Positions 13,001-50,769 of a stretch of 64,000 nucleotides of DNA are shown here, in pieces. Within the stretch, counting starts at the first letter, position 1. Each line of letters starts with the position of its first letter. The notes under the pieces were generated by a model. The model was not told the origin of the DNA and did not search any database. It saw nothing but the letters and a program-made list of their open reading frames with translations. Made by a program: the position numbers and the translations under genes. The DNA comes from a virus: positions 1 to 64,000 of the IMG/VR virus record IMGVR_UViG_3300031857_000091. One strand, 5' to 3'.

Positions 13001-13027
13001 TGTTGATCCTGTGCTATAGGGTTGACT

Positions 13028-13057
13028 GCCCCTGGGTGCTCCTACACCGCGAGGGGC
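13028..13057 (-). promoter_or_regulatory. Leader hairpin (CCCCT-cgc-GGTG-loop-CACC-c-AGGGG), copy 1
   Basis: Same bulged hairpin at 25221-25248 and 28008-28035, each ~30 nt upstream of an ATG. Confidence 0.7.
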
Positions 13058-13197
13058 TTTTTCTCATATTATCATATTTGTGATTTTACAAACTAAAAAA
13101 AGATAAAATAGAAATTAAATCCTAGTGTTGTGCCTTTTGTGCTTCCTTTCATCGATTGGGTACGAGCTCAAGGAATTTGACAACACAAGGTCAACAT

Positions 13198-26881: not shown

Positions 26882-27007
26882 ATGATTATTTTATACTGCT
26901 TAAGTTTTTTGGGGATATTCTTTTTATTACTATTGTGGCGGACTGGATTATTGAATATTTTTTTTATTGCCTTTATCTGCCAATTTGAAAACCTATTGAC
27001 AAAATAA
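26882..27007 (+). CDS. Small hydrophobic peptide (41 aa)
   Basis: MIILYCLSFLGIFFLLLLWRTGLLNIFFIAFICQFENLLTK, AGGT upstream; below ORF-track cutoff. Confidence 0.4.
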   Translation: MIILYCLSFLGIFFLLLLWRTGLLNIFFIAFICQFENLLTK

Positions 27008-27017
27008 GTAAGATTAA

Positions 27018-27260
27018 TTATTCTCCTAAAGAAAAATTGTTAATTAAAAAAGCGGTAGAAATGCGATAAAGTTGATTATTTAACCGTCTGAGATAAGAAT
27101 AATCACCGTCACATTCAGTCAAGAAAAAAGTTTCGTAAACAGAAGAATCAAAATAATCAGGATAATTGCTGTAGTAAGAAAAAATATTACAGTCAGATAA
27201 TACTAATGCTCCTTGACATTTGACCTTTTGCCCTATCAACATTTCGACGTTGTACAACAT
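27018..27260 (-). CDS. Hypothetical protein
   Basis: 80-aa ORF coupled to the PEP-CTERM gene. Confidence 0.5.
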   Translation of the reverse strand: MLYNVEMLIGQKVKCQGALVLSDCNIFSYYSNYPDYFDSSVYETFFLTECDGDYSYLRRLNNQLYRISTAFLINNFSLGE

Positions 27261-27895
27261 TATTTAGTTTTGAGGGATTTGTTGATTGACTTTGATAAAA
27301 ATAAGCCAGTGATTCCTAAAATAGATGAGATAACAGTGGTAGGCTCTGGAACAGTTGTAGGCTCAAATTCTACAGGAGAGCTTGCTATCCCACTTAGAGA
27401 AAAGCTTTGATTATTTGGTATCCCTTGAGCAGAGATACTGACTTGCCCAGGTAATATATAAGTGCCGTTAGAAACAGGAACGCGCCACTGTCCATTAAAT
27501 GTTGCCCCAGTAAACCGCTGAGCACCGGACCTAAAGTTACTGCCATCTTCGCCAGGATTGTTTGGATAAAAAATAATTTTATTTGTAATTAAAGGGCTAG
27601 GAGCAGTAGGTTGCCCATTTCCAATAGTTCCTAGTGGAGAAAGATTAATAGGTTGAATATCAACAGGTCCATTAAGCCCTAAATTTGGTAACGGATTCCC
27701 ATCAGTATCTATTCCCCCAGAGAAAAAGGTAGATGTTAGGATTGCTGAATTGTTGGCAAATTTTAATTGTGTATTGCTTAAGCTTGCATCTCCGGCAATA
27801 GTAATGCGACCAACCGTGGCAGCAGATGCCATAGCAAAACTAAGATTAGCAACAGCCCCAGTCAGTAACGCAGTTAATTTAAGAATATTTTTCAT
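27260..27895 (-). CDS. PEP-CTERM sorting domain surface protein
   Basis: Signal peptide ending AMASA; C-terminal VPEP + hydrophobic helix + basic tail. Confidence 0.88.
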   Translation of the reverse strand: MKNILKLTALLTGAVANLSFAMASAATVGRITIAGDASLSNTQLKFANNSAILTSTFFSGGIDTDGNPLPNLGLNGPVDIQPINLSPLGTIGNGQPTAPSPLITNKIIFYPNNPGEDGSNFRSGAQRFTGATFNGQWRVPVSNGTYILPGQVSISAQGIPNNQSFSLSGIASSPVEFEPTTVPEPTTVISSILGITGLFLSKSINKSLKTK

Positions 27896-28007
27896 TAGCT
27901 TTAATTTTAAAAATATATCTCATTTAAAATTTAACATATTTTTTAATACGCTACCTTGATTAACTCTTTTTTTGTTTACAGAATAACGTACAATGGCAAT
28001 AGAAACA

Positions 28008-28035
28008 CCCCTCGCGGTGCGCAAACACCCAGGGG
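28008..28035 (+). promoter_or_regulatory. Leader hairpin, copy 3
   Basis: cccctcgcggtgcgcaaacacccagggg followed by cagtcaacc as in copy 1. Confidence 0.7.
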
Positions 28036-28068
28036 CAGTCAACCTACTTCACAGACAAGAGGTTAACA

Positions 28069-29202
28069 ATGAGTAATTTAGCACAATTTGCCTTTGGAAA
28101 CAATCAAGTTCGAGTTGTTTTGATTGATGGTCAACCATGGTTTGTGGCAGCTGATTTGGCAAAAATTCTAGAATATGCCAACACAGGGAAAATGCTTCAA
28201 ATTGTGGACAAAGAAGATTCCGTAGAAATTAACCCGCAAAAGTTGGATAATGCCAAAATGGTACTATCCTTTAATAGCAATACTTTCAGGGTTTCATTGA
28301 TTAACGAATCTGGGTTATATTCCGTGATTTTTAATAGTACTAAGTCGGAAGCCAAAACTTTTAAACGGTGGGTAACTAGTGATGTCCTTCCCCAAATTAG
28401 AAAAACGGGAAAATATGAACCCCAGTCAAAACTAAATATCTACGCCCGTCGAGTACAGATAGCTTCTAAATGGGAAATACCTAAAGGTTATTGGTGCGTT
28501 TTTCATGAAATATCCTTACTAGCCAATAAAGTAGGGGAGACCTATCAAGTCGGCGAGTTTGACACTCCACTACCTAAAGGTGAGTGGATTCTTTAGAGGA
28601 GATAACTAACAAATGCTAGTCATTGCTCGAAGCAACCACATTGTCATATCGTGCCTTAGCACTAATACAACAGCAGTTCACAAGGCGGTGTCAATTGCCT
28701 TTATCCTGTCAGCTATTGCTTTCAGGTTACTTTTTGCTTACGTTTTTTCACTCGCTTACAGTCTTTCTTTATGGGGGCTGAGGCTGTAGTGCATAGCACC
28801 GAGTACCATTTCGGTTACTCATTTTTTCAACAGGTGTCCCGCCACAGGGTGTTTCACCCTACCAGTAAGGTCTTAGTTGCGTACTTTTATTTTACACTAA
28901 TTTCGACAAAATATAAAGCCGTCCTCAAGGACGGGGTTTCTACCCATTTTTCTGATGACTTGATCGACGGCAGTGTAGGTCAATGTTGGAGCAAGTATCG
29001 TAAGGCTTTTGATTGGATTCAGCCCACTATATTGTTTCCCATCTTTTTTGGTGATTCTCGAGACGCTGCTCATGTGCAGGTTCATGGGTACAAGAATAGC
29101 GAGTTACCCCACTTCCGTGATTGGCTAGAAAATATCTACACACTAGAGCGATTGCCAAAATATCTAACTGGCAAATATGGGCAATTGATGAAGCGAGATT
29201 GA
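28069..29202 (+). pseudogene. Bro-N antirepressor-like gene interrupted by a 396-bp element
   Basis: Bro-N motifs. Removing 28559-28954 gives in-frame ..QVGE-Y-DLIDGSVGQCWSKYR.. to the stop at 29202. Confidence 0.88.
28559..28954 (-). mobile_element. Non-autonomous IS200/IS605-family element (396 bp), copy 1
   Basis: Left-end hairpin CCGTCCTTGAGGACGG, right-end hairpin TCCACTCACCTTTAGGTAGTGGA ending in TCAA, TCAT target 5' of left end, no target duplication, no transposase ORF. Confidence 0.88.
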
Positions 29203-29243
29203 AAATAACATAAAATAGCAACAAAACCTCCCTCGCGGTGTTT

Positions 29244-29657
29244 TTAGCCATGTTTTTCAATATCTAGTATCCATTGCGGTGTGTGTGAGGTTTCTTTCGT
29301 AAAATACTTTTGACGGTCTAATTCGTCGATTATGTATTTCAATAATTCTTCCATGATGTCATAAAATTCCTGATAATCCATATCCCAGTAAGGAAGTGAT
29401 ACAGACAAAGCATCTGGATTGTATGGAGGTATAAACTTATCTCCATATAAGATTCTGTAAAAACCGTTTTTCAATCCATCCCCATCAATGACTTTGTAAT
29501 CATTTTCAGTAAAAACAACGTATGCTCCACACTTATATTGATTTGATGTCTCGTAAATAGCTTCCTCGATAAAAGGTTTGTTGTCAAGAAAGCTTAAGAT
29601 GGTATCAAGTAATTTATTTTTATCCATGTTTACCTCATGAGTTGCAATACAAAACAT
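29244..29657 (-). CDS. Hypothetical protein
   Basis: Probable start at MDKNK with GAGG RBS. Confidence 0.6.
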   Translation of the reverse strand: MFCIATHEVNMDKNKLLDTILSFLDNKPFIEEAIYETSNQYKCGAYVVFTENDYKVIDGDGLKNGFYRILYGDKFIPPYNPDALSVSLPYWDMDYQEFYDIMEELLKYIIDELDRQKYFTKETSHTPQWILDIEKHG

Positions 29658-29864
29658 GGTACAGCAAAAAGAATCTAGGTAAACAGATAGTGCTTTAGAG
29701 CAAATCTATTTTTGGAGATATAAATTACTAAAATCCATATATATCAAGGTTTAATGTGCTTCAGAGCAAATCCTGGGGATAGCTCCAAACACAAAAAACA
29801 CCTAGGAATAAATCTTCTTAGGCGTTTTTTGTATCAATAATCATTGAACTAACACTGTATCAAG

Positions 29865-30074
29865 TTAAGCCAACTCTGCATCAAGCAAATTTTTAAATTC
29901 ATCTGGGGCTATTGATTCCCAATCCTCAGCGATCGCTTTAAGATCCGCTTCGGTGATATTGGATAAACTATTATAGTTCGCTTCAGACAACGGTTCGCCC
30001 ATGATCATAATCTTGGGAGTTAAGTCAGGGCTAGGAGGTGGGAGAGTTATCGCTTGATCCACTTGATTTTTCAT
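29865..30074 (-). CDS. Hypothetical protein, end of capsid operon
   Basis: 69 aa, overlaps upstream gene; terminator at ~29793-29830. Confidence 0.5.
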   Translation of the reverse strand: MKNQVDQAITLPPPSPDLTPKIMIMGEPLSEANYNSLSNITEADLKAIAEDWESIAPDEFKNLLDAELA

Positions 30075-30411
30075 CTACTTGAACCTCATTGGATAAATCG
30101 GCTTTTTTTCTACTTGTTTTTGTAGGATTTGTCGGAATAAACGTAGAAAGGTCAATGGGATCATCTTTCTTTAAAGTTTTTTCTAATGGGTCACTAGGCT
30201 GTGTCAAGAAAAGTGGTAAAGGTTCTGCTGTGGGGGTAATCGCCCCCCATTCTAGGTACTTTTGATAATCAGGGTGTTTCTTTAGCCGGGTAAACTCTTC
30301 ATGAGTTAGATTATTTGTTCCCGGCTCTAGATTCACCCCATCAAAAGTAGTTGCACCTTTACGAGGGTTGGGCTTTTCTTTTCCAGGATAATAGAAAAGA
30401 GTAGTAATCAT
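30031..30411 (-). CDS. Hypothetical protein downstream of capsid gene
   Basis: 126 aa, coupled to capsid stop codon. Confidence 0.6.
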   Translation of the reverse strand: MITTLFYYPGKEKPNPRKGATTFDGVNLEPGTNNLTHEEFTRLKKHPDYQKYLEWGAITPTAEPLPLFLTQPSDPLEKTLKKDDPIDLSTFIPTNPTKTSRKKADLSNEVQVDEKSSGSSDNSPTS

Positions 30412-31358
30412 TAGTTATTGGTTATTGCTATAGGAAAATCTGCATACCTGATAGTTCTAGGATAATCAGCTTGAACACTAGAAACGCTCTTATATCCGTA
30501 GACATTATATTTCATTCCTTCTTGTACTGGAGACATGACGTACAATGGGGCAAAATGTCTAACTACGTTTTTGGATTGTAGATTTAAAAAGACTAATCTG
30601 TCTTTTCCTGTTCCAGATGATTGGACTCCATTAGCTTCAAGCTCTGCACTAGCTAACTCTGGCATAGGAACAACTATAGAAAGACTTGGTAAAGTTTTCT
30701 TTAGTGTATCCATGAGAGTATCCCCCACATTATCGCTACGAAAAGTCGTATTTAGCAACTTAAATAAAGTAGGAGGGACGTATAATGCGTTGGGCATCTC
30801 TACAAAGTTAGTAGAAGTCCACACTGCATAATATTCATTGGCAATAAAGTCAATGATGTTTTTTGAAGTTGCGTTCCCAGCGTATAGCTTGTAAGTAGAA
30901 GTGTTGCTTAATGTCACTTCTGGGTGATTGAGCAAGCCGTGCACTTGATGGGAGGGTAAACCGTAAGCGCATAACTGGTGGGATTTCACATCAATCATGC
31001 GACGCATTCCCATTAATCTCTCATCCTTGAAATTAGTCACTAATTGACCATTCTTAGAGGCAAATTCACTGGCTCTGAGTTCTGGGTCAGTATAAGAACA
31101 ACCTCCAAAAATATGAACGATACGGTATATATCTTTGCCTACAGTGACTTCAGACATGGGAATATCTTGAGCTGAGCCAGTCATAATAGATGCTTGACCG
31201 TAATGCCGAACTGTTTCTACAGTGATTGTTTCTGCCCCTACTGAGATATCTCCAATTTGAGGGCAGTACAATCCGTTATCTAAATACAGTTCTGGAAGTC
31301 TTTCGCGAAGTACGATAGGGAGCTTTTGCTCTAAATAATTTGATAAAATTGCTGACAT
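30411..31358 (-). CDS. Major capsid protein (DUF2184-like, HK97 fold)
   Basis: GAETIT, YTDPELRA, AYG..VHGLLNHP; canonical order protease-scaffold-cement-capsid. Confidence 0.85.
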   Translation of the reverse strand: MSAILSNYLEQKLPIVLRERLPELYLDNGLYCPQIGDISVGAETITVETVRHYGQASIMTGSAQDIPMSEVTVGKDIYRIVHIFGGCSYTDPELRASEFASKNGQLVTNFKDERLMGMRRMIDVKSHQLCAYGLPSHQVHGLLNHPEVTLSNTSTYKLYAGNATSKNIIDFIANEYYAVWTSTNFVEMPNALYVPPTLFKLLNTTFRSDNVGDTLMDTLKKTLPSLSIVVPMPELASAELEANGVQSSGTGKDRLVFLNLQSKNVVRHFAPLYVMSPVQEGMKYNVYGYKSVSSVQADYPRTIRYADFPIAITNN

Positions 31359-47712: not shown

Positions 47713-47826
47713 TTAATGCGACAAACCGAAAATCAAATACAAAATTAGGAAAAGCAAGATAACGAGAGGGGCGAGAACAATTGCGGCAATTACTCCAGCG
47801 ATAAATCGAGCAAAAAAGGTAATCAT
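47713..47826 (-). CDS. 37-aa membrane peptide separated from its leader by the element
   Basis: MITFFARFIAGVIAAIVLAPLVILLFLILYLIFGLSH; its ATGA is the complement of the TCAT target. Confidence 0.6.
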   Translation of the reverse strand: MITFFARFIAGVIAAIVLAPLVILLFLILYLIFGLSH

Positions 47827-48222
47827 TGGAAAAATGGGTAGAAACCCCGTCCTTGAGGACGGCTTTATATTTTGTCGAAATTAGTGTAAAATAAAAGTAC
47901 GCAACTAAGACCTTATTAGTACGGTGAAACACCCTGTGGCGGGACACCTGTTGAAAAAATGAGTAACCGAAATGGTACTCGGTGCTATGCACGACAGCCT
48001 CAGCCCCCATAAAGAAAGACTGTAAGCGAGTGAAAAAGCGTAAGTAAAAAGTAACCTGAAAGCAATAGCTGACAGGTTAAAGGCAATTGACACCGCCTTG
48101 TGAACTGCTGTTGTATTAGTGCTAAGGCACGATATGACAATGTGGTTGCTTCGAGCAATGACTAGCATTTGTTAGTTATCTCATCTAAAGAATCCACTCA
48201 CCTTTAGGTAGTGGAGTGTCAA
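47827..48222 (+). mobile_element. Non-autonomous IS200/IS605-family element (396 bp), copy 2
   Basis: Inverted copy of 28559-28954 with roughly ten substitutions; preceded by TCAT (47823-47826); ends GTGTCAA. Confidence 0.88.
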
Positions 48223-48243
48223 TTGTTGTCTCTAAATTGAAAA

Positions 48244-49955: not shown

Positions 49956-50417
49956 ATGGCTACTAATTTTTTGGTAGGGGGTGGCAACAAGGTAAGCGTC
50001 AAAGTAACGGCAATACCAGAAACTGTTGCAGAACCTCAAAATGGTGGATCTACTCTTTTATATGGTGGAACTCAAGCTGGATTCAATATCTCTGCTGACC
50101 AAACAGATTCTAAGGTTTTTGAAGACGAGCTAGGTTTTGCTTTTGGTGTAGTCACAGGTCAATCATGGGACGTTCCTTGGACAGCTAACCTTTTGACTGC
50201 TGACCCTGGGCATCAAATTTTAAAAGCAGCTGCAATCGGTGCTGTTTCTGGGAAAAAAGTCGGTATCACAGTTGAAGTCAAAAACCAAGCTCAGGCGACT
50301 ATTTCCAAGCTGGATGGAGTAGCTATAGTTACAAATTATTCAGAAGATTATCCTGCTGATGGAATCTTAACTTATAACTGCACCTTTACTGGTTACGGAA
50401 GTCCAACACTTAGCTAA
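49956..50417 (+). CDS. Tail tube (major tail) protein, siphovirus type
   Basis: SWDVPWTA, GVAIVTNYSEDYPADGILTYNCTFTGYG (TP901-1-like). Confidence 0.8.
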   Translation: MATNFLVGGGNKVSVKVTAIPETVAEPQNGGSTLLYGGTQAGFNISADQTDSKVFEDELGFAFGVVTGQSWDVPWTANLLTADPGHQILKAAAIGAVSGKKVGITVEVKNQAQATISKLDGVAIVTNYSEDYPADGILTYNCTFTGYGSPTLS

Positions 50418-50445
50418 TAAAACAGATAATAAAGAGGTGATTTAA

Positions 50446-50769
50446 ATGGCGGCTATTCAACCTACCGATATTTTTAGTGGTTACACTGCTGATGGAAACG
50501 GGCTTACAATTCCTTTTTCTTCAATTCCTGGACTTACTGCGGCAGAAGCTCATGCAGCAACTGGAGATGCTCGCGAAGTTTTACGTCTTATTTTAGAAAA
50601 GTATTTTGTTGCTATAGAAGCAATGCCTGCCAACGAAAAGCCTGCTTTTATGAGTATCTCTAGAGGCAGCTTAGTTGGTTTAACATCTAGTACAGTTCGC
50701 AGAAGTTACTCAATATCTTTTGATGAATCAGTTGGAGCTGTGGCAACTTCTATTAGACCAGAGCCTTAG
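50446..50769 (+). CDS. Hypothetical virion-associated protein
   Basis: GAGGTG RBS, cotranscribed with tail tube. Confidence 0.55.
   Translation: MAAIQPTDIFSGYTADGNGLTIPFSSIPGLTAAEAHAATGDAREVLRLILEKYFVAIEAMPANEKPAFMSISRGSLVGLTSSTVRRSYSISFDESVGAVATSIRPEP

Follow-up and report, generated by a model that had tools for sequence, protein, structure and literature searches.

A protein-less IS200/IS605-type element with a putative omega-RNA in two copies in a phage genome

A 396-bp element occurs twice in the freshwater cyanophage DNA analyzed here, and the interpretation that we favor, with a probability of about 80%, is that each copy is a protein-less IS200/IS605 derivative (PATE) originating from a cyanobacterial host, equipped with a promoter-like site and an RNA homologous to the omega-RNAs of TnpB, and both mobilised and loaded into TnpB in trans. 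The window, i.e. the whole stretch of DNA that was analyzed (64,000 nt), corresponds to the initial 64 kb of an IMG/VR virus record of 83,430 bp, whose completeness is estimated at 68%.

The element, its ends and its relatives

A repeat finder run on the 64-kb window returned an inverted repeat of 400 nt with 98% complementarity (28559-28958 versus 47823-48222), which contains the two copies of the element in opposite orientations (Table 1). The copies are 98% identical, two of their 10 mismatches lying immediately after TCAT. In both cases TCAT directly precedes the element, TCAA ends it, the flanks are unrelated and target duplication is absent. Each copy displays one hairpin at the left end (CCGTCC-TTGA-GGACGG) and another, bulged one at the right end, and closes with AGTGTCAA; the hairpins are subterminal and imperfect at both ends, and terminal inverted repeats are absent. 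The initial annotation of this DNA had placed both copies, and the two flanking strings that it took for guides, at exactly the right positions, and the TCAT on the 5' side, the terminal hairpins, the final TCAA and the lack of target duplication that it described are all seen in both copies.

Beyond the window, positions 75216-75269 of the record (L003:1501-1554) contain a third piece, which corresponds to the final 54 nt of the right end. This remnant makes up all of the sequence separating a cas6 gene (Pfam Cas6, 3.2e-36) from a gene encoding a 472-aa cas8-like protein, the ATG of which follows it directly. In a contig of run X10, the left end of the element abuts sequence resembling the start of this cas8-like gene, so that a relative may carry a full copy at that site.

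Table 1. Features of the window related to the two copies of the element
Feature	Position	Strand	Remark
BRO-N antirepressor-like gene split by copy 1	28069-29202	+	N part 28069-28558, C part 28955-29202; Bro-N domain, E 1.1e-23
Presumed guide, 3' flank of copy 1 (ACTCGCCGACTTGATAGG)	28541-28558	-	would need transcription to read on; putative role, by the TnpB family mechanism
Copy 1, 396-bp protein-less IS200/IS605 element	28559-28954	-	inside the BRO-N antirepressor-like gene
Terminal AGTGTCAA, copy 1	28559-28566	-	inside the R1 domain
Right-end hairpin, copy 1	28567-28587	-	inside the R1 domain
3' TnpB omega-RNA-like scaffold (model R1), copy 1	28559-28735	-	142 bits
TTGACAC, copy 1	28688-28694	-	pairs with the last 7 nt of the element
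5' structured RNA domain (model R2), copy 1	28735-28883	-	141 bits
Promoter-like site, copy 1 (TTTATA, 17-nt spacer, TAAAAT)	28889-28917	-	mirrored from copy 2
Left-end hairpin, copy 1 (CCGTCC-TTGA-GGACGG)	28919-28934	-	shared by 57 of 401 sampled cyanobacterial genomes and by the TnpB elements L006, L094 and L095
Target (transposon-adjacent) motif TCAT, copy 1	28955-28958	-	ATGA on the BRO coding strand
Target motif TCAT, copy 2	47823-47826	+	ATGA start of the 37-aa membrane peptide on the minus strand
Copy 2	47827-48222	+	R1 domain 48046-48222, R2 domain 47898-48046; variant TG as its first two bases
Left-end hairpin, copy 2	47847-47862	+	
Promoter-like site, copy 2	47864-47892	+	
Presumed guide, 3' flank of copy 2 (TTGTTGTCTCTAAATTG)	48223-48239	+	putative role

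The left end of the element is present in 57 of the 401 cyanobacterial genomes sampled. Among 50 distinct insertion sites, the bases before it are TCAT in 42, TTAT in six and something else in two, and the sequence further upstream is random. A gene-less element of this family (L087; G007:C65, about 50160-50620) directly follows the terminal TCAA of a different TnpB element; because this copy starts right after a foreign TCAA, the motif is a target lying outside the element. It follows that TCAA is itself usable as an insertion site, which gives rise to tandem arrays.

Using a 19-mer of the right end against one genome per species, we retrieved a locus of a Crocosphaera MAG (L006) in which the same left and right ends surround a 414-aa ORF. 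The product is recognized as TnpB by Pfam (OrfB_IS605, 2.3e-28, together with a Cas12f1-like TNB domain), and the locus is, as judged from its sequence, a TnpB-only insertion sequence. Two further TnpB-only elements (L094 and L095) have both ends in common with the phage element and encode TnpB proteins 62% and 64% identical to that of L006. Autonomous elements with the same ends, for which the initial annotation had recommended searching the host genome, exist in cyanobacteria. A Y1 TnpA is encoded in all five of the checked genomes that hold the RNA module described below, and at one locus (L139) the TnpA (Y1) gene adjoins a left end of the same type.

Homologous elements of 380-400 nt, 67-71% identical to that of the phage, were found in five genomes (G346, G166, G058, G007 and G001) and in a metagenome contig, G166 containing at least seven copies. 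These are the nearest chromosomal relatives, none exceeding about 71% identity. Searches of cultured phage records gave no match to the element, and the sole match in plasmids was a left end in a Picosynechococcus plasmid; the interior pattern was absent from viral contigs and was found at four loci of metagenome contigs, each belonging to a known subtype. Several family members have unusual architectures. In G206, the element takes a 784-nt form whose left hairpin is interrupted (L048); a G166 member (L080) has a GGCAGGGGAGG-type repeat block nested in a hairpin of its 5' domain; and a 341-nt hybrid (L020:1314-1654, G230) combines a 5' RNA domain of the window type with the last ~110 nt of a Crocosphaera-type tnpB element, the crossover lying within the shared AAAAGUAG-hairpin region.

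The tnpA and tnpB genes are absent from the element, as the initial annotation had stated, and also from the whole 83,430-bp record (estimated to be 68% complete). The element contains no conserved reading frame: frames differ among family members, nothing inside it matches Pfam, and 46 of the 52 indels found in five pairwise comparisons of family members are not multiples of three. The interior might have proved to be decayed coding sequence, a possibility raised from the outset; what it holds instead of a conserved frame is covarying structure. We also considered a duplicated cassette with a reverse-strand gene for a small protein, which would have 58 aa in copy 1 and 87 aa in copy 2, as could be suspected from a reverse-strand ATG placed after a purine-rich stretch. 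This reading was rejected as highly improbable, since the frame stops at different places in the two copies, has no Pfam match and is unconserved in relatives, where indels are mostly not multiples of three.

Because both copies share their ends with TnpB-encoding elements, lie at a T[C/T]AT target without duplication and lack a conserved frame, we class them, on these sequence features, as a PATE. The assignment to the IS200/IS605 type made in the initial annotation is borne out by the same observations and by the restoration of the host frame when the element is removed (see below). Two other origins were discarded. The Nezha MITE, characterised by terminal inverted repeats together with direct repeats, is unrelated, and a simple deletion derivative of the Crocosphaera tnpB element was dismissed on the grounds that tblastn and blastn similarity is restricted to the last ~40 nt.

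A structured RNA with two domains

The interior of the element is predicted to encode a structured RNA of about 325 nt on its sense strand. RNAalifold applied to 11 sequences gave 64 predicted pairs, 23 of which show compensatory changes; the fold includes a long-range helix of 7 bp, in which TTGACAC pairs with the last seven bases of the element, and the right-end hairpin, which shows compensatory changes across the family. In the 3' half, 93% of cells were paired (slid controls, 31-53%) and 10 pairs had changed on both sides, values as high being reached in 0 of 500 shuffles for the paired cells and in 1 of 500 for the double-change pairs. The 5' half behaved similarly, with 94% of cells paired, 12 double-change pairs, slid controls of 38-54% and 0 of 500 shuffles as high; with 17 model-fitted sequences, 92% of cells were paired and 19 of 27 pairs were double-change pairs (0 of 500 shuffles; slid controls, 38-48%). 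As G-U combinations far outnumber A-C combinations in paired cells (93 versus 9) and the predicted fold is more stable for the sense alignment (-46 kcal/mol) than for the antisense alignment (-35 kcal/mol), the RNA is probably read in the left-to-right direction of the element.

A promoter-like site (TTTATA, 17 nt, TAAAAT) stands just after the left hairpin and ends 6 nt before the conserved RNA. In the aligned family members, a -10 box reading TATAAT, TAAAAT, TAAGAT or TACAAT is found 7-9 nt before the start of the conserved RNA; the -10-like TAAAAT that had been noticed ahead of the non-coding interior is thus part of a promoter-like site whose -10 box is conserved in relatives. In the contigs of metatranscriptome X19, the only form in which this run was used, the element interior was uncovered, a result that is uninformative on expression; a 32-nt match in X19 belongs to another organism's copy.

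For similarity searches, the RNA was split into two covariance models, R1 (174 positions, 3' half), built from the 3' half of gene-less elements, and R2 (151 positions, 5' half). Neither domain is catalogued: the window copy and four relatives gave no match in Rfam at E values up to 10.

In both copies, R1 extends up to the terminal TCAA. It matches the tnpB 3' ends of Crocosphaera, at 41 (L006) and 38 bits, and those of 10 of the 12 further tnpB genes of the same clade, always in the orientation of the gene, with scores of up to 60 bits (E 5e-13, L094) and of 51 bits for L096; E values of such home-made models are rough, and the right-end hairpin, a site for the transposase as well, contributes part of each score. 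Indeed, matches to the hairpin alone reach 14-26 bits, so that about half of the weaker scores is due to the transposase site. The strong matches extend well beyond this hairpin. In the Crocosphaera elements and in ten further loci, the match runs from just after the RuvC-III motif to the terminal TCAA, and the alignments of L006, L094 and L096 all retain the AAAAGUA motif at the start, the first hairpin and the helix formed with the last bases. Compared to the tnpB-linked scaffold, the gene-less form carries an additional helix of about 54 nt. In a second TnpB clade, which shares the left end, the R1 match is confined to the right-end hairpin. Note that the homology of the 3' domain to tnpB elements becomes visible with the covariance model and is missed by blastn and tblastn.

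Since R1 matches the 3' ends of tnpB genes, the last 177 nt of the element probably correspond to a TnpB omega-RNA scaffold. The folding and covariance modelling that the initial annotation had called for hence yielded both a covarying fold and a link to tnpB. Its proposal that the right end encodes an omega-RNA stands for these last ~177 nt and does not extend to the other ~150 nt, a domain of its own that tnpB elements lack. Of the five module-bearing genomes searched, four encode a TnpB of the matching clade, as does the Crocosphaera MAG, and none is encoded in the phage record. By analogy with the published mechanism, the RNA would be transcribed into the flank, processed and loaded onto TnpB, which would then cleave the empty allele.

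R2 behaves differently from R1, in that it matches gene-less elements only and none of the tnpB loci among those searched. It was found in five of 151 genomes (seven matches), an R1-type 3' domain being present in the same element in five of the seven cases; for the R2 match of L149, no R1 match was found. The 5' domain (~150 nt) occupies the place of the tnpB gene, between promoter and scaffold, and because it is without counterpart in tnpB elements, the whole RNA is not simply an omega-RNA. Our guess is that the 5' domain stabilises an omega-RNA that has ceased to be excised from a tnpB mRNA, or helps to process or load it.

Phage genes and natural alleles

Copy 1 splits a BRO-N antirepressor-like gene. 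Deleting 28559-28954 fuses the two frames into an open one encoding a 245-aa BRO-N protein, and intact homologues (P0002, P0003, P0013, P0015 and P0004) read ..VGE[Y/F/H]DLIDG.. across the junction. Uninterrupted homologues from the database are 238-276 aa long and up to 100% identical to the C-terminal BRO piece; a search of related loci with the N-terminal part matched the Bro-N domain only and did not reach the junction. A 143-aa ORF (28771-29202, plus strand), which corresponds to the recorded protein P0001, starts in the element and reads into the C part of BRO; this gene call is a chimera that the insertion brought about. Copy 2 sits between a leader and the ATG of a minus-strand gene for a 37-aa hydrophobic peptide. 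Each copy runs antisense to its host gene.

The surroundings of the BRO gene vary in other ways. A 42-nt inverted repeat links 28003-28044 to 13020-13061, several of the metagenome contigs show breaks or divergence at 28003 and 28035, and an X10 contig joins 28005 to 29130, with the whole BRO region removed.

That the length of the element is a multiple of three and that its removal restores the BRO frame would also be expected of a self-splicing intron-like element leaving the BRO mRNA so that the gene stays functional, as in IStrons, which combine IS605 ends with a group I intron (10.1101/2023.11.20.567912). We rejected this reading, which we consider scarcely credible: five family members gave no Rfam match, intron models included, at E values up to 10, i.e. 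the intron signature was not found; the RNA strand is antisense to BRO for copy 1 and to the flanking genes for copy 2; and the two insertion sites share no exon sequence past the 4-nt motif.

The antisense orientation of both copies could alternatively mean that the element is chiefly a regulatory cassette, whose promoter drives antisense transcripts out through the right end, while the right end read in reverse would provide downstream genes with a ribosome-binding leader and a TTGACA box, the cas6-cas8 junction being an example. TTGACA does open the right end in reverse complement, and it is at the inner end of the 54-nt remnant that the cas8-like gene begins. Conservation and covariation, however, track the fold of the sense-strand RNA rather than the flanks, the same RNA module is found at unrelated chromosomal sites, and the Shine-Dalgarno-like bases differ between the copies; we regard a mainly regulatory role as improbable.

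We aligned contigs of four public runs to positions 27000-31000. In X6 and X10, two freshwater metagenomes from different studies, one contig each joins 28559 to 28956 and thereby skips 396 nt; X4 contains the filled form and X6 both filled and empty forms. Owing to the four ambiguous letters of the joint (TGAC), the empty allele reads GAG TTT GAC, i.e. on the element strand it has TCAA, not TCAT, before the guide match. The initial annotation had held that the guide matches the insertion-free allele next to a TCAT motif; the guide match is there, with precisely 396 nt skipped, but the motif beside it is TCAA in the sole natural empty allele seen. Exact empty-site strings with TCAT were absent from viral contigs for both copies. 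By the logic of the family, a guide match flanked by TCAA, the element's own end motif, should not be cut.

The BRO codon at the junction (28558/28955) varies in homologues: with Tyr or His, the opposite strand retains TCAT, and with Phe it reads TCAA. The lake empty alleles are of the Phe form. The lake empty allele could be an old polymorphism (the Y, F and H alleles all occur) or result from a microhomology deletion of 4 bp; precise excision did not produce it.

These alleles bear on whether the element is anything more than an inert hitch-hiker, i.e. a PATE by descent that decays slowly as a passive insertion, whose RNA is not used by TnpB during infection, and which matters only in that it breaks or uncouples phage genes (the BRO antirepressor, the 37-aa membrane peptide). 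This is possible, though in our judgment not probable. A natural empty allele with TCAA instead of TCAT is in keeping with it, as are the lack of TnpA and TnpB in the phage record, the reduction of the third copy to 54 nt and the state of copy 2, which has two changes at otherwise invariant paired positions. On the other hand, the two copies remain 98% identical and have kept nearly all family-invariant positions and helices, and the coexistence of filled and empty alleles in X6 points to recent mobility or maintenance.

Proposed mechanism and relation to known systems

In the interpretation that we favor, a PATE acting in trans, the element would have entered the phage genome from a cyanobacterial host, the TnpA of which would move it in trans. 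The RNA would be transcribed from the left end to the right end, running about 16 nt into the flank, and be loaded by a host TnpB of the matching clade. The loaded TnpB would cut TCAT followed by the flank sequence, i.e. the insertion-free allele, and recombination would then restore the insertion or spread it, including into co-infecting relatives. We also entertain, as a speculative and rather unlikely extension, that the element is an RNA-guided drive: the phage-borne copy would borrow the host TnpB to cut and convert insertion-free sibling phages, the 5' domain would be a new module for competing for TnpB or for processing, and the TCAA allele of the lakes would be drive-resistant.

Gene-less guide-RNA elements have been published as a kind. 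PATEs 'often encode omega-RNAs', to be used in trans (Meers et al., 10.1101/2023.03.14.532601; Geobacillus stearothermophilus), and mobilised stand-alone omega-RNAs function in trans, their biological role being described as unknown (Altae-Tran et al. 2023, PMC10691335). Like these, the phage element has no protein gene, hairpin ends common to TnpB elements and a fixed-motif insertion without duplication; its scaffold likewise abuts the right end, so that the flank would provide the guide, and it would need both TnpA and TnpB in trans. Unlike the PATEs described, it is phage-borne and polymorphic in lake metagenomes, its RNA family is not in Rfam, and it has an extra conserved 5' domain of ~150 nt with its own -10 box, absent from tnpB-encoding relatives.

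The TnpB-only (IS1341-type) elements L006, L094 and L095 resemble it in the left end, the T[C/T]AT target and the right-end hairpin with GAGTGTCAA, and in the omega-RNA core (AAAAGUAGC, a hairpin, GAGUAG.GG, and UUGRCAC pairing with the last 7 nt). In these relatives, a TnpB of 390-420 aa is encoded and the omega-RNA lies within the end of the gene, whereas in the window element the 5' RNA domain replaces the gene and the scaffold has an extra helix of ~54 nt. The tnpB insertion sequence that cyanophage A-1(L) carries, identical to copies of its host Anabaena (10.64898/2026.02.14.705889), is a parallel case, in which a freshwater cyanophage acquired an IS200/IS605-family element of its host; that sequence encodes TnpB, whereas the element of the window encodes RNA only and would have to borrow the nuclease. 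IStrons are similar in that a structured RNA fills most of an IS605-type element and protein-less derivatives exist; they differ by their intron signature, not found here, and the RNA strand of the present element is antisense to the interrupted genes.

For phage annotation, the element explains both the split BRO antirepressor gene and the chimeric 143-aa call. Gene-less IS200/IS605 elements that keep just a guide RNA are known and little studied; the present case adds a phage setting in which filled and empty alleles coexist, an uncatalogued RNA family and a 5' domain specific to gene-less elements. The RNA family defined here, of ~325 nt, shows strong covariation and lies outside Rfam, and its 5' domain of 150 nt, which appears only where tnpB has been lost, gives a hint of how a parasitic guide RNA can do without excision from a tnpB mRNA. 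The coexistence of filled and empty alleles of a phage gene in lake samples makes the TnpB homing and retention model testable in phage populations and, were the drive reading true, the action would fall during infection or lysogeny.
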